Shown here one piece after another: positions 18,464-54,955 of a stretch of 54,955 bases of DNA (positions are counted from its first letter, which is position 1; the number at the start of each line of letters is the position of its first letter). Under the pieces are notes generated by a model that was not told where the DNA came from, did not search any database, and was given only the letters and a program-made list of their open reading frames with translations. Position numbers and translations under genes: made by a program. Source of the DNA: a bacterium (lineage in GTDB: Bacteria > Patescibacteriota > Minisyncoccia > Phycocordibacterales > UBA9973); NCBI GenBank assembly GCA_037143195.1, contig JBAWZD010000004.1:1-54955 (forward strand), read 5' to 3'.

Positions 18464-18886
18464 ATGAAAATAAAAATCAAAAAATTGAAAGATGGTGCAC
18501 GTTTGCCGAGTTACGCTCGGCCTGGCGATGTCGGCCTCGATATGTACTCGATGGAGACAGTCACGATTGCTCCCGGTGAGCACTACCGATTTTGGCACGG
18601 TTTTGCTCTTGAATTTCCCGAAGGATTTGCGGCGATTGTGAAAGACAAAGGCAGTATTTCAAAGGCAGGATTGCATACAATGGGTGGCGTCTACGACGCT
18701 GGATATCGTGGCGAATACAATACGCACCTCGTCAATTTGGGAGACGTACCGTACACGGTAGAGGCGGGAGACAAAGTTAGTCAGATTGTGATTTTCCCTG
18801 TCGCTATTGCAGAACTTGAAGAAACTGATAGATTGAGTGAATCAGAGCGCGGAGACGGACGGTTTGGCTCAACGGGGAAGCAATAA
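18464..18886 (+). CDS. dut: dUTP diphosphatase
   Basis: GDVGLDM, KDKGS, GVYDAGYRGE, SQIV and RGDGRFGSTG motifs. Confidence 0.95.
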   Translation: MKIKIKKLKDGARLPSYARPGDVGLDMYSMETVTIAPGEHYRFWHGFALEFPEGFAAIVKDKGSISKAGLHTMGGVYDAGYRGEYNTHLVNLGDVPYTVEAGDKVSQIVIFPVAIAELEETDRLSESERGDGRFGSTGKQ

Positions 18887-18887
18887 C

Positions 18888-20621
18888 ATGAAAGAAAAAC
18901 TCGAAACACTTTTACGCGACGCACTTACGAATCTCGGCATTATGGCCGAGACTATTGTGCTTGAACATCCTGCGGAGCTTTCGCATGGTGACTATTCGAC
19001 GAGCGTTGCGCTTGCTTATGCGAAGAAAATTGCGAATCCGCCAGCTGGCGGACCTCGCGCCCTCGCCGAAAAAATAGTCGCTGAACTATCAAGTGAGAAA
19101 CTCGCAGAACTCGGGATTGAAAAAATGGATATCGCTGGCGCTGGATTTATCAACTTCCACCTTTCAAAAGATTTTTTTGCGAAAGAAATCGAAACAATCA
19201 ATACACTTGGATCAAAGTGGGGCACGAATTCCGCCTCACGTGGCAAAAAAGTTATGGTTGAGTATACCGATCCAAATCCATTTAAGCCTTTTCATATTGG
19301 ACACTTGATGACGAATGCGATTGGAGAATCGACTGCGCGTATTTTTGAATATTCGGGCGCGAACGTAGTTCGCGCAAACTATCAAGGGGATGTGGGACTT
19401 CATGTTGCCAAAGCGATATGGTGTTTACTCAAAAAAGGTAAAGGGGACACAAGCCTCTCTGTGCAAGCACAGGCAGAATATATCGGTGCGTGCTATGTAG
19501 AAGGATCAACGGCATACGAAGAAAATCCTGACGCAAAAATTGAAATTGATGCTATCAACAAAAAGGTGTACGAAAAAGCAGATCCTGCAATCAACGACAT
19601 GTATGATTGGGGACGCAAAGTGACACTCGAAGCTTTTGAGACAATTTATGCACTCCTCGGCACAAAGTTTCAATCGAATTGTTATTTCTTCGAGAGTGTC
19701 ATGGCTCCAATTGGCAAGAAAATTGTTCAAGAGAATACGGGAACAGTCTTTGAAGAATCAGATGGAGCAATCGTTTTTAAGGCAGAAAAATATAATCCCA
19801 AATTACACACGCGTGTGTTTATAAACTCGCAAGGATTGCCAACGTATGAGACAAAAGAAATTGGTCTCACGGTTACAAAATTTGAACAGGAAAATCCAGA
19901 CCTTTCCATTGTAGTTACCGCGATTGAACAAGGCCCATACATGAGTGTCGTTCAAAAAGCGATCTCGCTAATTCATCCTGATTATGAATCACGCATGAAG
20001 CATCTCACGCACGGCATGATGCGTTTTGCGAGTGGCAAAATGAGTTCACGTAAAGGGAATGTCATTACGGGTGAATCACTTCTCCAAGATGCACGTGACC
20101 TTGTTCATGAGAAAATCAAAGAACGCGAATATGAGGAAAATGAACGTGATTCTATCGCGGCGCAAGTAAGTGTGGCTGCAATCAAGTACACCATTTTGAA
20201 ACAGCAACTCGGTGGGAATATTATATACGATGAGGAACACTCGGTGTCATTCGAAGGTGATTCCGGTCCGTATTTGCAGTATACAGCTGTGCGTGCACAA
20301 TCAATTCACGAAAAAGGGAAGAACGCTGGTCTCGTTAGTAGCGCCGTTCTCCCTGCGGAATGGAAGACAACATCACTCGAAAAATATCTCTACCGATTTC
20401 CAGAAGTCGTTGAGCGAAGTTACCAATTCCTCGAACCGCATCATATTGCAGGATATTTGCTTGAACTCGCTGCTCAGTTCAATTCATTCTACGGACAAGA
20501 AAAAATTGTTGATAGTACCGACGCCACATCACCATACAAACTCGCACTCACCGAAGCATTCCGCACCACCATGAAAAATGGTTTGTATTTGCTTGGTATC
20601 GAAATTCCAAATAAAATGTAA
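18888..20621 (+). CDS. argS: Arginyl-tRNA synthetase
   Basis: HGDYST, GAGFINF, VEYTDPNPFKPFHIGH, KMSSRKGN and GDSGPYLQY motifs. Confidence 0.97.
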   Translation: MKEKLETLLRDALTNLGIMAETIVLEHPAELSHGDYSTSVALAYAKKIANPPAGGPRALAEKIVAELSSEKLAELGIEKMDIAGAGFINFHLSKDFFAKEIETINTLGSKWGTNSASRGKKVMVEYTDPNPFKPFHIGHLMTNAIGESTARIFEYSGANVVRANYQGDVGLHVAKAIWCLLKKGKGDTSLSVQAQAEYIGACYVEGSTAYEENPDAKIEIDAINKKVYEKADPAINDMYDWGRKVTLEAFETIYALLGTKFQSNCYFFESVMAPIGKKIVQENTGTVFEESDGAIVFKAEKYNPKLHTRVFINSQGLPTYETKEIGLTVTKFEQENPDLSIVVTAIEQGPYMSVVQKAISLIHPDYESRMKHLTHGMMRFASGKMSSRKGNVITGESLLQDARDLVHEKIKEREYEENERDSIAAQVSVAAIKYTILKQQLGGNIIYDEEHSVSFEGDSGPYLQYTAVRAQSIHEKGKNAGLVSSAVLPAEWKTTSLEKYLYRFPEVVERSYQFLEPHHIAGYLLELAAQFNSFYGQEKIVDSTDATSPYKLALTEAFRTTMKNGLYLLGIEIPNKM

Positions 20622-20625
20622 TCAT

Positions 20626-21039
20626 ATGTCACTCATCACCGATATTCAAAAAATTAAAAATCCTACGTTCGTCCTTGCTGTAATAGCGCTGCTGTTACTC
20701 GTGACTCCGGGGTTCTTGTTCGTGTTCTATTTCAATCGACCACTTTTTGAACAGTTGGAGTTCCTGAAGCTTTTATTTTTGTCGCTCGGATGCATGACCC
20801 CGCTCGTAGCGTTTCATTTTTTTACAGCGCCATCAATGCATGAGGAGGGGAGTAATACATCAAACGAAAATTTCACTTCACTCATATTTTCGATTCTTAT
20901 ATCCTCAGCAGCAATGTATCTGTCACTTTTCGCAGCATATTGTTTTGGTGAATCTCTTCACTATGGGCACGGATTGAGAATTTTTATTGGGACACTCGTA
21001 ACGATCGAGGTTGGTTTTTTCTGGGGTCGCTCTCTCTGA
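20626..21039 (+). CDS. Small AT-rich membrane protein
   Basis: Four hydrophobic segments; the ORF sits between argS and the ileS promoter. Confidence 0.65.
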   Translation: MSLITDIQKIKNPTFVLAVIALLLLVTPGFLFVFYFNRPLFEQLEFLKLLFLSLGCMTPLVAFHFFTAPSMHEEGSNTSNENFTSLIFSILISSAAMYLSLFAAYCFGESLHYGHGLRIFIGTLVTIEVGFFWGRSL

Positions 21040-21097: not shown

Positions 21098-21103
21098 GAG
21101 ACA

Positions 21104-21290
21104 AGCGTTGATGAGGCTATCACCTCGGAGCTCCTAGGAAGAAATTCGCCTGATATGCGGATATAGACCCTAGCGGGAGGTCCCGTCATAGACTCATAAC
21201 AAGCCCGAAAGGGGAAGCAAGGTGGTACCACGAGAAAGCTCGTCCTTGTATGGCAGAATTCTGCTGTACGGAGACGAGTTTTTTATTTAC
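21104..21290 (+). ncRNA. T-box riboswitch (Ile specifier AUC, ultrashort Stem I, transcriptional terminator)
   Basis: K-turn Stem I with loop CTATCA, Stem II, IIA/B, Stem III, antiterminator AAGG-TGGTACC-ACGAG-AAAG-CTCGT-CCTT, and a terminator ending GACGAG-TTTTTT. Confidence 0.93.
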
Positions 21291-21330: not shown

Positions 21331-24300
21331 ATGTCCGAAGAAATCAAAAAATCCCCAGCCGCAGAAAAAGAAGAAAAGATCATGCAGTTTTGGCGCGACA
21401 ACAAGACGTTTGAACAGTCGCTCACCAAAGACGCGCCAAAAGGGAACTACGTTTTCTACGATGGTCCGCCATTTGCGACAGGACTTCCTCACTACGGACA
21501 TATTCTCGGCTCAACCGCCAAAGATGTGATTGGTCGGTATCAAACGATGCAGGGTTTTCGCGTGCCACGCAAATGGGGGTGGGATTGTCACGGATTGCCG
21601 ATTGAAAATATTGTTGAAAAAGATTTGGGACTTTCTGGTCACAAAGAAATCGAAGCACTCGGCGTAGAAAAATTCGTCGAACACGCGCGAAGCAAAGTGC
21701 TCACGTATGTGCACGATTGGAAACGCACCGTCGAGCGCATTGGTCGCTGGGTGGATTTTGATGGTTCGTACAAGACGATGGACAATAGTTTCATCGAAAG
21801 TGTCTGGTGGTCACTCGGCGAGCTCAACAACAAAGGCCTCATCTACGAAGGTGTACGCGTGCTCGCATACTGTCCACGCTGTGAGACACCAATCGCAAAA
21901 TCTGAAATTGCGATGGACAATAGTTACAAAGACATTGCCGATATTTCTGTCTATGTAAACTTTCCACTTGTCGAAGATCCAAATGTGAATTTGATTGGCT
22001 GGACGACGACACCATGGTCGCTCCCTGGAGATATCGTGCTTGCAGTGAATGCAGAGGCAAGATATGTCAAAGTCAAAATCGCAGGCGACTCAAGTGGCAA
22101 ATCATATGTGCTCGCAAAGGATCGTGCAGAAGCGGTGCTCAAAGAAAAGCCGTTCGAGATCGTCGAAGAATTTTCTGGTACTGCACTCCTCGGCAAAAAA
22201 TATATGCCACCGTTTGATTACTATACAAAAGGTGAGGCGCTCCTCGCGAATCCAAAATCGTGGACTGTCGTTGCGGCTGATTTCGTAACAACGACCGACG
22301 GTACTGGTATCGCACACGAAGCACCTGCGTTCGGTGAAGATGATGCTACACTCGCGCAAAAGGAAAATATTCCATTCATTGTGCACGTTACGCCGGAAGG
22401 CAAATTTGCACCAGAAGTCACTGACTTCGCAGGTATGGCTATCAAGCCAAAATCGGCCGAGAAAGATGGCCACATGAAAGCCGATATCGAGATCATCAAA
22501 TATCTCGCGGCAAAGGGTTTGCTTTTCAAAAAAGAAAAGATCATGCACTCGTACCCGCACTGCTATCGTTGTGAAACTCCACTCTTCTATTACGCGCTCC
22601 CAAGTTGGTTTGTGAATATTCAGAAAGCAAAAGCGAGAATGCTCGAGACTGCCAAAGACATGAAGTGGATTCCAGAGCATCTCAAGGAAGGTCGCTTCAA
22701 AAATACGATGGAATCAGCACCGGATTGGAACATTTCCCGCAATCGCTACTGGGCAAGTCCACTTCCATTTTGGAAATCTGCCGAGGGCAAACTCATGTTT
22801 GTCTCATCGGTTGAAGACTTGAAATCAAAAACAAAGAAGTCTGGTAACACGTATCTTGCGATGCGTCACGGTCATGCTGAACACATGGTCGCACAAGTCA
22901 TGGCGAGTCTCGAAAACGATTCATATCCACTCACGGAACAGGGAAGGAATGAGGCGACGAGTCGCGCCGAAGAATTGAAGGCTCGCAAAGTCACAAAGAT
23001 TTTTGCTTCGCCACTCATTCGCACACAAGAGACGGCGCAGACCGTTGCGGATATTCTTGGTATCGCACGGGAAGACATTGTGACTGACGACCGTCTCCGC
23101 GAATATGATTTTGGTGAATGGAATGGCAAACCATTTCAGGAATTCATCGACTATCGTAAAAATAATGTGAAAGACTATACCGAGCAACTCGGCGCGTCAT
23201 CTCTCCTTGAGACCAAAAAGCGTTTTGGTGATTTTCTCTACGAACTTGAATCAAAGTACGCGAACGAAACGATTCTCATCGTGACGCACGGTATTTTCTT
23301 TGAGACGAGCGCTGCGCTCATCCAAGGTGCTGACAATGCACGATCGCTCGAAATTCTCTTCGATGTGTTTAATTTGAAACGCATTCAACCAGGTGAAGTG
23401 CGCGAGCTTGCGTTCGTTCCACTGCCACACAATGCGAGTTATGAACTTGATTTGCATCGACCATATATTGATGCAATCAAGCTTGTTGATGAAGCGGGGA
23501 CAGAGTACACCCGTATCAGTGAAGTCATCGACTGTTGGTTTGAATCTGGTTCGATGCCATTCGCACAAGATCACTATCCATTCGAGCGTCCAAATTGGAA
23601 GAGCGAAAATTTCCCTGCGGGATTCGTCGCTGAATACATCGCGCAGACACGTACGTGGTTTTATTACACACACGCTGTTTCGACGATTCTCTTTGACGCT
23701 GCACCATTCAAGCATGTCGTGACGACAGGAACATTGCTCGCTGAAGACGGACAAAAAATGTCCAAGTCCAAAGGCAACTATCCCGACCCATGGATATTGT
23801 TCAACAAATATGGTGTTGATCCACTCCGCCTGTATCTCATGTCGAGTCCGCTCATGAAAGGTGAGGACGCAAACTTCTCTGAAAAGGCCGTGCAAGATAT
23901 CGCTTCGAAGCTCATCGGACGATTGCAAAATGTGCTCACGTTCTACGAACTCTACCGCGATGTGTCGCTTGAAAAAGAAGTTACTTCGTTTGAAGCACAG
24001 AACGTGCTTGATATCTGGATCCTTTCACGCCTTGCTGAATTGGTCACTGATGTGACGAAGGGAATGGAGGCATATGATATGACGGAATCGACACGACCAT
24101 TTGATTTGTTTGTCGACGATCTTTCGACATGGTATTTGCGTCGCTCACGCGAACGCATCAAGGACGGTGAGACCGATGCGAAGAAGACATTGTATGTTGT
24201 GTTTACAACTGTCGCGAAATTACTTGCACCATTTGCACCATTTACGGCTGAAGATATTTGGCAACGTTTGAAGCACGGAGACAGTGTTGATTCAGTACAT

Positions 24301-24816
24301 TTGACCGAGTGGCCAACTGCGGGAGTAGTCGTCGAAGAAGTGCTCATGGCAATGAAGACAACACGTATGGTGGTGACGTATGGATTGGAAGCTCGTCAAA
24401 AAGCGGGGCTCAAAGTTCGCCAACCGCTCGCACAGCTGAAAGCAAAAAACATGAAGCTCGGTGGTGAATATACTTCAATCGCGATGGATGAATTGAATGT
24501 GAAAGAAATCGTTGAGGATACGACACTCGAGACCGATGTGTGGCTTGATACGACGATTACTGATGCACTCAAAAAAGAAGGGGAATATCGTGAACTCGTG
24601 CGCGGCGTACAGGAGCTGCGCAAGACCAAAGGACTGACTCCGAGCGATGTCGTAACACTCACGCTTTCGATGAATGCAAAAGATATTGTTGCTTCGTTTG
24701 AAACTGAGATGAAAAAGACCGTGCTTGCTCGCGAGATTGTTTTTGTTGATTCATTTGAGAATGGAGAGGCGATCGAGGTCGCGGGAGCGACCGTGCTTGC
24801 ACGTGTGGAGAAATAG
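21331..24816 (+). CDS. ileS: Isoleucyl-tRNA synthetase type 2 with an inserted histidine-phosphatase domain
   Basis: FYDGPPFATGLPHYGH, WGWDCHGLP, WNISRNRYW, DLHRP and KMSKS motifs, no C-terminal Zn finger, and a ~190-aa RHG...THG insert. Confidence 0.96.
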   Translation: MSEEIKKSPAAEKEEKIMQFWRDNKTFEQSLTKDAPKGNYVFYDGPPFATGLPHYGHILGSTAKDVIGRYQTMQGFRVPRKWGWDCHGLPIENIVEKDLGLSGHKEIEALGVEKFVEHARSKVLTYVHDWKRTVERIGRWVDFDGSYKTMDNSFIESVWWSLGELNNKGLIYEGVRVLAYCPRCETPIAKSEIAMDNSYKDIADISVYVNFPLVEDPNVNLIGWTTTPWSLPGDIVLAVNAEARYVKVKIAGDSSGKSYVLAKDRAEAVLKEKPFEIVEEFSGTALLGKKYMPPFDYYTKGEALLANPKSWTVVAADFVTTTDGTGIAHEAPAFGEDDATLAQKENIPFIVHVTPEGKFAPEVTDFAGMAIKPKSAEKDGHMKADIEIIKYLAAKGLLFKKEKIMHSYPHCYRCETPLFYYALPSWFVNIQKAKARMLETAKDMKWIPEHLKEGRFKNTMESAPDWNISRNRYWASPLPFWKSAEGKLMFVSSVEDLKSKTKKSGNTYLAMRHGHAEHMVAQVMASLENDSYPLTEQGRNEATSRAEELKARKVTKIFASPLIRTQETAQTVADILGIAREDIVTDDRLREYDFGEWNGKPFQEFIDYRKNNVKDYTEQLGASSLLETKKRFGDFLYELESKYANETILIVTHGIFFETSAALIQGADNARSLEILFDVFNLKRIQPGEVRELAFVPLPHNASYELDLHRPYIDAIKLVDEAGTEYTRISEVIDCWFESGSMPFAQDHYPFERPNWKSENFPAGFVAEYIAQTRTWFYYTHAVSTILFDAAPFKHVVTTGTLLAEDGQKMSKSKGNYPDPWILFNKYGVDPLRLYLMSSPLMKGEDANFSEKAVQDIASKLIGRLQNVLTFYELYRDVSLEKEVTSFEAQNVLDIWILSRLAELVTDVTKGMEAYDMTESTRPFDLFVDDLSTWYLRRSRERIKDGETDAKKTLYVVFTTVAKLLAPFAPFTAEDIWQRLKHGDSVDSVHLTEWPTAGVVVEEVLMAMKTTRMVVTYGLEARQKAGLKVRQPLAQLKAKNMKLGGEYTSIAMDELNVKEIVEDTTLETDVWLDTTITDALKKEGEYRELVRGVQELRKTKGLTPSDVVTLTLSMNAKDIVASFETEMKKTVLAREIVFVDSFENGEAIEVAGATVLARVEK

Positions 24817-24817
24817 G

Positions 24818-25312
24818 ATGCAGGTACGACCGCTCATCATGTTTGATTTTGATGGTGTCATTGTTGATACACTCGGTATTTCACCTAGCCCAAAACGGAC
24901 ACTTACTGTGCCAGAAAGTATTCAACAATTAGTAAAAAAACTTGTTTCCAATTTTCATCTCGCGATTATTTCAAGTTCCCAAACTTCGACAATCAAAGAT
25001 ATCATTGCGCGCGAGGGCGTAGCGGATTGTTTTTCTGATGTGCTCGGCTATGACGTAGACTCAAGCAAAGTTGTTCGCATCAAAATGATGCTTGATCAAT
25101 ATGGCGCGAAACCAAACGAGACGGTATTCATTACTGACACAAGCGGAGATATATACGACGCACATGAGAGCGGTGTCCCTGCTATTGCTGTCACGTGGGG
25201 AATGCAAAGTCGCGACACACTTGCTGACGCAAAACCGCTCACGATTGTAGATTCTGTCGCTATCCTCGAACAAGAGATTCTCGGATTTTTTTCTGGTACA
25301 ATAGGGGAATGA
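24818..25312 (+). CDS. HAD-superfamily hydrolase with minimal cap
   Basis: FDFDGVIVDT, ISSS, K, ITDTSGD and AVTWG motifs. Confidence 0.85.
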   Translation: MQVRPLIMFDFDGVIVDTLGISPSPKRTLTVPESIQQLVKKLVSNFHLAIISSSQTSTIKDIIAREGVADCFSDVLGYDVDSSKVVRIKMMLDQYGAKPNETVFITDTSGDIYDAHESGVPAIAVTWGMQSRDTLADAKPLTIVDSVAILEQEILGFFSGTIGE

Positions 25313-25917
25313 AAGAAGATTTTTCGGATCGTATGAACGAAGGCAAAGAACTTGAAAAAGATCACCTCGTCAAGGTGGTTGGAATGACCGATTTTTTCCT
25401 CTCGGCGGTCAAAGGATTTCGTCGTGATTTAGCACTGTCTATTCCTTCGTGTCCCGACTACTTGGAGGCGGATTTTCTGACCTTGCCGAATGGACTTGTT
25501 GTACCACCGATGCCGACCGCAAAAAGTTTTGGCGATTTGAGCAAAATGTTGACTCTTTCGGATGATGCACTGAATGGCACGATTAAACTCAAGAATCCAA
25601 AATTTGGTCCCGACCAAGGAATGCGAGAGAAACTCTTAGAGGAAGCACTTTTGACACACAAGAATCTAATGGATGTTGCCGACACTGCGAATCGAATGTA
25701 TCAGACAATCCAGACTGCTGGATTTGAATTCGATGTATTCAACTCAAACAATATTGAAGTTGGGCACGCAGATATGAATATTGTGTTTGATCGCGACGAA
25801 TTGTATCTTGCGTCGGCGACCGCTCGCGCACTCGGCGAGCGGGCCGTACGCCTCGACATTGATTTGGTTGAAGGTATCGAACGACTCCAGACCGGACAAA
25901 ATAAAGTAACAATATGA
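25309..25917 (+). CDS. Hypothetical protein
   Basis: 202-aa ORF with 4-nt overlaps to both neighbours and its own TGnTACAAT motif. Confidence 0.75.
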   Translation: MKEDFSDRMNEGKELEKDHLVKVVGMTDFFLSAVKGFRRDLALSIPSCPDYLEADFLTLPNGLVVPPMPTAKSFGDLSKMLTLSDDALNGTIKLKNPKFGPDQGMREKLLEEALLTHKNLMDVADTANRMYQTIQTAGFEFDVFNSNNIEVGHADMNIVFDRDELYLASATARALGERAVRLDIDLVEGIERLQTGQNKVTI

Positions 25918-26489
25918 GTACATCTCCACGCGTATTTTTAATTCACGGCTTTGAAGGCACGCCAAACGGTGGTTGGCGTCCATGGCTCATGGCGCAACTC
26001 GCGCTCAAAGATATCTTTGCGTGTTCGCTTGCAATGCCGTCTCCAGAAAATCCAACACAAATCGAATGGACGAATGAAATTGCTCGTGCAGTAGGAGAGC
26101 CGAGCGAAAATATTTTTCTTATAGGACACTCACTCGGAGTTCCTGCGATTTTGCAGTATCTCCAGTCTCTTAAAACGGGTGATCAGATTGGCGGTGTCGT
26201 GCTTGTCTCAGGGCCGTTTCAAAATGTTACCGATGAATACAGTACGAAACTTGAGAGTTTTTTTGTGCCGTCATTTGATTTCGATCGAATCAAAAATGCG
26301 TGCAAGCAGTTTGTCGTTATCCATGGCGACAATGACCCACTCGTACCATTTTCTGATGCCGTATTGTTTGGGCAAGAACTTGATTGCCCTGTCATGCCTG
26401 TGACAAACGGAGGACATCTCAATGGCTCGAGTGGTTGGCGTGAATTGCCACAAGTACTCACCGCACTCGAAGGATTTTTCAGTCGATAG
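25914..26489 (+). CDS. RBBP9/YdeN-like alpha/beta hydrolase
   Basis: IHGF...W..WL, GHSLG, HGDNDPLVP and GGHLN catalytic pattern. Confidence 0.9.
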   Translation: MSTSPRVFLIHGFEGTPNGGWRPWLMAQLALKDIFACSLAMPSPENPTQIEWTNEIARAVGEPSENIFLIGHSLGVPAILQYLQSLKTGDQIGGVVLVSGPFQNVTDEYSTKLESFFVPSFDFDRIKNACKQFVVIHGDNDPLVPFSDAVLFGQELDCPVMPVTNGGHLNGSSGWRELPQVLTALEGFFSR

Positions 26490-26495
26490 GTTTCT

Positions 26496-27107
26496 ATGCA
26501 CCACATTCATCACACAGAAGCATTTGTGCTTGGTTCGCGACCAAAAGGGGAAGATTCAAAATTGCTCATTTTATATACGCGTGAACTCGGATTGATTTAC
26601 GCTCATGCGCAGGGGATACGAAAGATTTCTTCGAAGCTCCGATTCACACTCCAAGATTATTCGCGTGCACAAGTTGACCTCGTTCGAGGCAAAGAGATTT
26701 GGCGCGTGACGACGGCGACTCCGATGCATTCATATTCGAGTTTGCGTCGCGCTCGCGAGAGCGAGCGCATCCTTGCACGTACCTCGGCGCTCCTCATGCG
26801 TCTCGTTACTGGTGAAGAAGCGAACACCGAAATATACGGTGCGCTCACGCGCACCTACGACCTCCTCGAATCCGCCACCACCCGCGTCGAAGACTACCGA
26901 GCTCTCGAACTCCTCGCCGTCGCTCGTATCCTCACCGCACTCGGCTACCTTTCTCGTGCGACTCCAGGGCTCATTCTCGAACCCGACCAGCCAGAACTCT
27001 GGCAAAGCGAACAAGCGCCAATCATTCCAAAAGAATTTTCCGATATCGCATACCAGCACCGCCTGATACGAGATATAAACCAAGCTCTCGCCGCAAGTCA
27101 GCTCTAG
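26496..27107 (+). CDS. recO: DNA repair protein RecO
   Basis: N-terminal OB-fold pattern GEDSKLLILYTRELG..A.A.GIRK..SKL. Confidence 0.88.
   Translation: MHHIHHTEAFVLGSRPKGEDSKLLILYTRELGLIYAHAQGIRKISSKLRFTLQDYSRAQVDLVRGKEIWRVTTATPMHSYSSLRRARESERILARTSALLMRLVTGEEANTEIYGALTRTYDLLESATTRVEDYRALELLAVARILTALGYLSRATPGLILEPDQPELWQSEQAPIIPKEFSDIAYQHRLIRDINQALAASQL

Positions 27108-52786: not shown

Positions 52787-54955
<2,169 letters not shown>

Follow-up and report, generated by a model that had tools for sequence, protein, structure and literature searches.

A histidine phosphatase domain nested in the catalytic core of a type-2 isoleucyl-tRNA synthetase from Patescibacteria

The stretch of positions 1–54,955 of contig JBAWZD010000004.1 in the patescibacterial assembly GCA_037143195.1 (the whole of this stretch is called the window below, and the features of it that are named here lie on the forward strand) carries a complete ileS gene at 21331..24816, encoding a type-2 isoleucyl-tRNA synthetase (IleRS) of 1161 residues that contains a nested histidine-phosphatase domain. 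The domain occupies residues 506–693 (188 residues; 22846..23409) and retains all the residues expected of an active phosphatase. It is one instance of a recurrent, lineage-wide pairing of a single phosphatase subfamily with IleRS and with valyl-tRNA synthetase (ValRS). Our tentative reading, to which we give somewhat less than an even chance, is that an active phosphatase works together with the synthetase, the candidate substrate being a 2'/3'-phosphorylated tRNA end or a nucleotide.

Results

A phosphatase spliced into a complete type-2 IleRS

The window protein passed the ileS equivalog model TIGR00392 (832.2 bits, cut-off 621.4). Pfam splits its tRNA-synt_1 match (E 3e-121) into two stretches with His_Phos_1 between them, followed by Anticodon_1 and by DUF5915, the type-2 C-terminal region, at residues 1036–1161. 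The HIGH-type signature motif is present as HYGH (residues 54–57; 21490..21501), with G51 invariant in the alignment, and so is the KMSKS loop (residues 809–813; 23755..23769), in which K809, S811 and K812 are invariant. The motifs of the CP1 editing domain are also kept, with W224-T-T-T-P-W229, G324-T-G326, H329 and D338 all invariant. A phmmer comparison with the bacterial type-2 IleRS of Priestia megaterium (8c8u) gave an E value of 8e-208. An AlphaFold2 model of the full protein (predicted local distance difference test, pLDDT, 89.8; predicted template modelling score, pTM, 0.82) matched type-2 and eukaryote-like IleRS best, with template modelling (TM) scores to the target of 0.84–0.93: P. 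megaterium IleRS2 (8c8v) reached 0.84 and Thermus thermophilus IleRS (1ile) 0.93, yeast IleRS was also among the best matches, and type-1 structures scored lower (0.75). By these comparisons the gene looks like the working type-2 IleRS of the cell.

The phosphatase interrupts this enzyme inside its catalytic core. The Pfam family His_Phos_1 (PF00300) matches residues 511–675 with an E value of 4e-29 and 102.1 bits, against a gathering threshold of 21.7, and this domain search bears out the membership in the histidine phosphatase family, here its branch 1, that an earlier note on this DNA had read from motifs. That note had also described about 190 extra residues between WNISRNRYW..VSSVEDL and DLHRP, segments normally close together in IleRS2. 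The extra sequence is the 188-residue insert, with its motifs exactly where they had been placed: WNISRNRYW begins at residue 466 (22726..22752) and VSSVEDL at residue 491, both 5' of the insert, and the IleRS catalytic core resumes with DLHRP (23449..23463), whose D707, H709 and P711 are invariant. The exact limits of the insert were set by free-standing homologues of about 190 residues, which begin with N-x-Y-x-x-x-R-H-G and end with G-E-x-R-x-L; by this comparison, what has been inserted corresponds to an entire small protein. Residues 486 and 685 of the window protein align to residues 461 and 466 of P. megaterium IleRS2 (8c8u), and the flanks of the insert are therefore neighbours in ordinary IleRS2. 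The same adjacency is seen in an insert-free relative, the 931-residue IleRS of locus L018.

The junctions themselves are conserved. Among 113 full-length homologues, reaching down to about 42% identity in the insert, the N-terminal linker T-K-K-S-G-N (residues 501–506; 22831..22848) keeps K502 in 92%, S504 in 94%, G505 in 98% and N506 in 100%. The C-terminal linker F-V-P-L-P-H-N (residues 695–701; 23413..23433), without counterpart in the insert-free L018 enzyme, keeps F695 and P699 in 100%, P697 in 97% and N701 in 98%. The spacing between W481 and D707 is confined to 219–228 residues throughout this set. At the corresponding site the L018 enzyme has a four-cysteine knuckle of the form CxxC...CxC, and the cysteines are lost in the window protein and in the consensus of the insert-bearing proteins. 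The phosphatase is thus spliced into a surface hairpin of the IleRS catalytic core that forms a cysteine knuckle in insert-free relatives.

Intact catalytic residues under strong purifying selection

The four motifs that the earlier note had taken for the catalytic Arg-His, Arg, Glu and His of the phosphoglycerate-mutase-like phosphatases align to those of PhoE, and their key residues are identical in all 113 homologues. R512-H513-G514 (22864..22872, within MRHG at 22861–22872) supplies a phosphate-binding arginine and the presumed nucleophilic histidine, aligned to the RHG of PhoE with R and H in 113/113. R564 (23020..23022), the second arginine of the phosphate pocket, lies in the motif S-P-x-x-R-T-x-E-T-A (SPLIRTQETA, 23008–23037). 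The presumed general acid is E591 (23101..23103, in LREYDFGEW at 23095–23121), and the second catalytic histidine is H653 of the T-H-G motif (23287..23289, in LIVTHG at 23275–23292). Also invariant are G538, S560, A569, R588, G595 and R631. On average, the catalytic parts of these homologues are 55% identical to the window protein, the insert 53% and the editing domain 46%, figures that carry some bias since the set was selected on the insert. Beyond this set, the two arginines and two histidines are kept in every copy at all other sites and in the free-standing forms; nearly all of these carry Glu as the acidic residue, the exceptions being four with Asp and one, whose context is uncertain, with Gly.

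Selection on the insert, which the earlier note had proposed to measure, was computed from the one true orthologue that a scan of genome contigs with the insert as a single protein recovered (L001; the other matches were unrelated phosphatases). The two proteins are 93% identical over the whole gene and 97% identical in the insert, at a synonymous divergence (dS) of about 0.8. Of the changes within the insert, 63 are synonymous and 6 non-synonymous, and the ratio of non-synonymous to synonymous rates (dN/dS) is 0.017 for residues 506–693, 0.026 for residues 1–500 and 0.11 for the C-terminal part (694–1161). The insert is under purifying selection as strong as that on the synthetase core. From its residues we infer that the domain is an active phosphomonoesterase. 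The description of the product as a two-enzyme polypeptide, a synthetase and a putative phosphatase in one chain, is accordingly kept, as the catalytic residues are invariant in the 113 homologues and retained in copies at other sites.

Two ways in which the domain might have proved spurious, degeneration of its catalytic residues across homologues and a chimeric assembly, had been named in advance; neither was seen. A degenerate, inactive domain is rejected by the invariance just described. A chimera is rejected by a search with residues 495–705, which returned at least 339 proteins of the same architecture from independent assemblies (ENA, NCBI, JGI and Logan), named as Patescibacteria, Paceibacterota or Parcubacteria where a source name is given, and by an independent contig that spans the insert. 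This Logan contig, from a freshwater metagenome run (18,494 bp, depth 25), covers positions 22000–24300 without a single difference, and the 3' junction is also bridged by a contig assembled from another sample. G+C content is flat over the insert. In the metatranscriptome of the sample that yielded the spanning contig, no contig lay on the window ileS.

The insert resembles PhoE-like phosphomonoesterases rather than mutases

Modelled alone, the insert (pLDDT 95, pTM 0.91) is confidently predicted to fold as an independent alpha/beta/alpha unit. Foldseek placed PspA (4ij6), GpgP (6s2q) and PhoE (1h2e) as its best matches, with a probability of 1.00 and TM scores of 0.75–0.81. The domain profile searched against solved structures gave PhoE (1ebb) as the best match (E 9e-33), in an alignment that pairs the RHG, R, E and H motifs of the two, followed by PspA, a riboflavin-pathway phosphatase, CobC, TIGAR and GpgP. 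The insert alone fell far short of all curated equivalogs of NCBIfam: TIGR03162 (CobC) scored 74.3 against a cut-off of 162.9, NF045917 (PspA) 58.5 against 350 and TIGR00249 (SixA) 36.1 against 74.5. None of the known families that heal RNA ends (HAD-type Pnkp, 2H and the HD domain of CCA enzymes) matches the insert.

One rival explanation is that the insert is the cofactor-dependent phosphoglycerate mutase (dPGM) of the organism, a glycolytic enzyme fused to a synthetase. Its best NCBIfam match is indeed the short archaeal dPGM model NF038349, and 'phosphoglycerate mutase domains' is the name under which Kantor et al. mention inserts of this kind (PMC3812714). That match reaches 88 bits against a cut-off of 225, however, and the other dPGM model, TIGR01258, scores 20.6 against 81.7. 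True mutases of solved structure align over positions ~4–110 of the profile only, about 110 N-terminal positions, whereas phosphatases align in full. A relative with an insert-bearing ValRS moreover has two tandem iPGM genes beside enolase and PGK, just 5' of that valS (L016, 2817–5951). The mutase identity is therefore disfavoured, and we consider it extremely unlikely. Because of the full PhoE-like match, the partial mutase match and the failure of all curated equivalogs, the insert is classed by sequence as a branch-1 histidine phosphomonoesterase that belongs to a separate subfamily, marked by N-x-Y-x-x-x-R-H-G at the start and G-E-x-R-x-L at the end, and not as a mutase.

The same subfamily recurs at five sites in two synthetases

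An exhaustive search with the insert returned 8196 matches at E<1e-3, of which 477 passed E<1e-10. Every domain copy in 397 gathered proteins was placed on the window IleRS and on a ValRS reference (P0272), and about 350 of these proteins proved to be embedded cases, with the phosphatase at three IleRS sites (A, B and C) or two ValRS sites. Site A of IleRS (506/694), the site used in the window, is occupied in 219 full-length clusters and 25 fragments, and six clusters have a tandem pair there. Site C (745/757) and site B (878/890) are occupied together in seven clusters, sites A and B in one, and site B alone in one (P0260, in which site A is empty). In ValRS the domain follows D-T-W-F-S-S-G, a position equivalent to site C, in 37 clusters and lies at the A-equivalent site in about 55; four further clusters, such as P0128, have two to four copies. 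Magasanikbacteria, Falkowbacteria and Colwellbacteria are among the taxon names given for ValRS cases, and some of these cases carry the JGI pipeline label 'valyl-tRNA synthetase/broad specificity phosphatase PhoE'. Fusions of the phosphatase to the N- or C-terminus numbered zero among the ~350 embedded cases.

The two copies of a tandem pair in one protein are 25–32% identical and copies at the same position of different proteins 42–55%. In the domain tree, built on only ~175 residues and read only at clades supported at 0.9 or more, the first tandem copies fall into one clade and the second into another (support 0.998 and 0.915). Given this low identity within proteins and the separate clades, the duplicates are old and have been maintained. 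The P0128 ValRS (1161 residues, ending at its contig end) has four phosphatase copies that are mutually 32–36% identical, with catalytic residues intact in all.

Several members of the collection carry further domains. The P0069 IleRS has an HD domain at its C-terminus along with the His_Phos insert. A 1204-residue IleRS at L023 (8129–10564; also in L024) has a NUDIX domain of ~125 residues where the CP1 editing domain begins, between the equivalents of residues ~198 and ~214, and an extra segment of ~50 residues at site A. The P0215 IleRS (1066 residues; JGI, 11-kb contig) combines the His_Phos insert with an IS200-like Y1_Tnp domain in the editing region (residues 340–461) and with a GNAT domain (residues ~935–1063) that replaces the C-terminal portion of the synthetase. 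Other members also have HD or GNAT domains added, and Ser_hydrolase (for example P0317) and ASCH domains occur in some ValRS.

The positions of the IleRS sites bear on a second rival, in which the domain would be a self-directed protein phosphatase that frees its own synthetase of an inhibitory phosphate, such as one on a serine near KMSKS. Kinase toxins of the HipA type put an inhibitory phosphate of this sort on other class I synthetases, and some histidine phosphatases of branch 1 act on proteins. In sequence, no IleRS insertion site is further than ~300 residues from KMSKS on either side, and SixA gives a weak match to the insert, below its cut-off. The histidine-phosphatase protein MutT1 dephosphorylates sensor kinases (PMC12407098). 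The cap region of the insert is PhoE-like, however, a type typical of small-substrate enzymes. We also know of no kinase that acts on IleRS or ValRS, and we regard self-directed action as very unlikely.

Most free-standing relatives examined lie beside ileS or argS

Five of seven free-standing homologues that were looked up are in an argS/ileS neighbourhood, and the order argS-[His_Phos]-ileS is found in L018, L019, L022 and L023. In L018 the free-standing P0196 lies between argS and the insert-free 931-residue ileS, one base before the start of the latter, with recO downstream; the window shares the argS-ileS-recO order with this locus. P0263 is situated between argS and the NUDIX-bearing ileS of L023, with two free NUDIX genes in between. 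P0265 is directly 5' of an ileS, P0228 follows argS at a contig end, and P0172 is convergent with an ileS called as two ORFs. The latter, on the reverse strand of L020 (2682–5609), consists of consecutive ORFs of 412+ and 554 residues, a split gene or a frameshift, convergent with the free His_Phos gene. In an insert-bearing relative, valS is not beside ileS.

Upstream of the window ileS lies argS (18837..20621; Pfam Arg_tRNA_synt_N, tRNA-synt_1d and DALR_1), encoding arginyl-tRNA synthetase. Its end is overlapped by an ORF for a hydrophobic protein of 153 residues with no Pfam match (20578..21039), in the place held by the free His_Phos gene in relatives. Between this ORF and ileS is a T-box-like leader whose Stem I is very short (21099..21250). 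It matches the full Rfam model RF00230, with 6 nucleotides standing in for 76 positions of Stem I, at 53.6 bits, under the gathering score of 93, and with an E value of 5e-11 for the 501 nucleotides searched. This sub-threshold leader lends indirect support to the predicted charging of tRNA(Ile) by the product. At the gathering threshold, Rfam matched only the 23S rRNA gene in the whole window (LSU_rRNA_bacteria, 1560 bits; 52787..54955, cut by the window end). Downstream of ileS are a HAD-family hydrolase directly at its 3' side (24842..25309; HAD_2, E 4e-12), a Ser_hydrolase/YdeN-like protein (25914..26489; E 1e-25) and the recO-like gene that serves as the downstream synteny marker (26496..27107; RecO_N, E 8e-12).

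Discussion

A possible partnership of the phosphatase with the synthetase

The tentatively preferred reading, a phosphatase that works with its host synthetase, draws on three sets of observations. The first comprises the repeated, independent positions of the domain in a pair of paralogous enzymes, the adjacency that the free gene conserves, and the conserved linkers. The second is the absence of terminal fusions, although in an arrangement of the L018 type a single lost stop codon would create one. The third is a theme of phosphoester hydrolases, with His_Phos, NUDIX and HD domains in or beside sister ileS genes. Toxic homologues of alarmone synthetases are known to pyrophosphorylate the CCA end of tRNA and to block its charging (10.1101/2021.04.30.441581; also 10.1101/2024.07.05.602228).

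In the proposed mechanism, the phosphate would be transferred to His513 as an intermediate; R512, R564 and H653 would hold it, and E591 would serve as the acid. A blocking 2'/3'-phosphate would be taken off the terminal adenosine of a tRNA held by the synthetase, or off a related 3'-phosphorylated adenosine nucleotide, so that charging could proceed. Where NUDIX or HD domains are at hand, the phosphatase might take the phosphate left after their pyrophosphate cut; with such modules a pyrophosphate, for example one placed on the CCA end by a toxin, would be removable and the poisoned tRNA chargeable again. Judged from genomic context, removal of a 2'/3'-phosphate from the tRNA acceptor end would be the most likely single mechanism, and taken by itself it is improbable. 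Nucleotide clean-up and self-dephosphorylation, treated here as rivals, would be other and less probable forms of such a partnership. Repair of tRNA ends had been one of the options in the earlier note, next to hydrolysis of a by-product and mere lodging in a tolerant loop. An equally doubtful extension is that the IleRS and ValRS of Patescibacteria possess a third active site beside those for synthesis and editing, a predicted built-in phosphatase for the 2'/3'-phosphate of tRNA ends.

Several points weigh against a phosphatase partnered with the synthetase. The nearest relatives in sequence and fold (PspA, GpgP, PhoE, CobC and a riboflavin-pathway phosphatase) are small-metabolite phosphatases. 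Copies at site A are acidic, with a mean isoelectric point of 5.7, and give no hint of RNA binding of their own. Two more distant free-standing homologues, one of them on a 1.8-kb contig, are not linked to a synthetase gene. Loops of IleRS host unrelated guests, such as the IS200 transposase and GNAT domains of P0215, and tolerance alone could therefore explain the insertion. To our knowledge no member of the histidine-phosphatase superfamily acts on RNA ends, and the proposal does not account for a need of this kind in IleRS and ValRS alone.

The metabolite-phosphatase relatives, the acidic isoelectric point, the unlinked homologues and the assortment of guests, which in the IleRS and ValRS of this radiation also includes Ser_hydrolase and ASCH domains, all speak for the insert as a passenger. 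It would then be a housekeeping phosphatase for a metabolite or nucleotide, without a role in aminoacylation, that had moved by local rearrangements from an ancestral argS-ileS operon into tolerant surface loops. A strongly and constitutively expressed essential host gene would guarantee its expression in a small genome. This is the main rival of the preferred reading, unlikely in our judgement, though to be taken seriously. A passenger would hardly be expected to occupy three IleRS and two ValRS sites with the same subfamily and never a terminus, where fusion is mechanistically easiest. Adjacency, moreover, fails for the ValRS cases, as valS is not beside ileS. The conserved linkers, the tight length window and the dN/dS of 0.017 also argue against it, as do the divergent tandem paralogues that have long been kept.

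A role in nucleotide clean-up at the synthetase would also fit the NUDIX and HD domains of sister IleRS and the free NUDIX genes near them. The phosphatase, together with the sister NUDIX/HD functions, would act on dinucleoside polyphosphate products, 3'-phosphorylated alarmone-type nucleotides, AMP or a poison that mimics the adenylate. Neither IleRS nor ValRS is known to us as a main source of dinucleoside polyphosphates. A Nudix and a histidine-phosphatase domain are joined in mycobacterial MutT1 (PMC11784022), and alpha-ribazole phosphatase, whose substrate is nucleotide-like, and RNase H/acid phosphatase are among the best NCBIfam matches of the insert, below cut-off. A free enzyme would serve such a purpose equally well, however, leaving the absence of terminal fusions and the fixed internal positions without explanation, and we hold this role to be quite improbable.

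Aminoacyl-tRNA synthetases are among the best-studied enzymes, and catalytic inserts in their cores are rare outside editing domains. Here, strong selection across a whole bacterial radiation maintains an intact phosphatase at several independent positions, tied physically or genetically to two synthetases. If the substrate were a tRNA end or a synthetase-bound nucleotide, the pairing would amount to a new step of quality control or repair in translation and would point to a stress by tRNA-end phosphorylation relevant to these episymbiotic bacteria; if it were a tRNA end, the domain would be the first member of the histidine-phosphatase superfamily directed at nucleic acid. If the domain were instead a passenger, it would show that the catalytic core of an essential enzyme tolerates inserts of gene size.

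Comparison with known systems

The architecture is already in print as a passing remark, and the window gene is a further member. In one sentence, Kantor et al. (2013, mBio; PMC3812714) described the isoleucine-tRNA synthetase of SR1 (and ACD80) as having domains of the phosphoglycerate mutase family; catalytic residues, distribution and function are not analysed there. Our literature search found, beyond this remark and automatic annotations, no functional or comparative analysis of the nested phosphatase-IleRS architecture, and a domain survey of 96,219 IleRS sequences (10.64898/2026.02.03.703510) makes no mention of a phosphatase, of Patescibacteria or of the candidate phyla radiation. Like the SR1 and ACD80 enzymes, the window protein is an IleRS of that radiation interrupted in frame by a domain of the histidine phosphatase family. 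Unlike SR1 IleRS, it carries a single insert, located at site A, and lacks a NUDIX domain, and it comes from a Paceibacteria-like freshwater host with the standard code. Forms with multiple inserts comparable to those of SR1 are the proteins occupied at sites C and B, the tandem pairs at site A and the L023 protein with its NUDIX insert.

With the bacterial type-2 IleRS of known structure (8c8u/8c8v and 1ile), the window enzyme has in common its family, fold, HIGH and KMSKS motifs, CP1 editing domain and DUF5915 C-terminal region, but in the solved structures the flanks of the insert are four residues apart and no phosphatase is present. NF040702, 'isoleucine--tRNA ligase, N-acetyltransferase domain-containing', is likewise an IleRS with an extra catalytic domain; there the addition is a GNAT domain in a different place, and the window protein, at 313 bits against a cut-off of 1999, is not a member.

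On the phosphatase side, PhoE (1ebb/1h2e), PspA (4ij5), GpgP Rv2419c (4pz9) and CobC (6e4b) resemble the insert in fold, in the R-H...R...E...H set, in size and in the cap region. They are free-standing enzymes with small-metabolite substrates, whereas the insert is nested, scores below their cut-offs and is tied to ileS and valS. Mycobacterial MutT1 (Nudix plus histidine phosphatase) and the Rv2228c-type RNase H/acid phosphatases are similar to the window protein in that a branch-1 phosphatase is joined to an enzyme of nucleotides or nucleic acids, and the insert matches both below cut-off (NF005567, RNase H/acid phosphatase, 82 bits; NF052459, MutT1, 22 bits). These are end-to-end fusions whose partners are not tRNA synthetases; in the window, by contrast, the phosphatase is a nested insertion within a synthetase.

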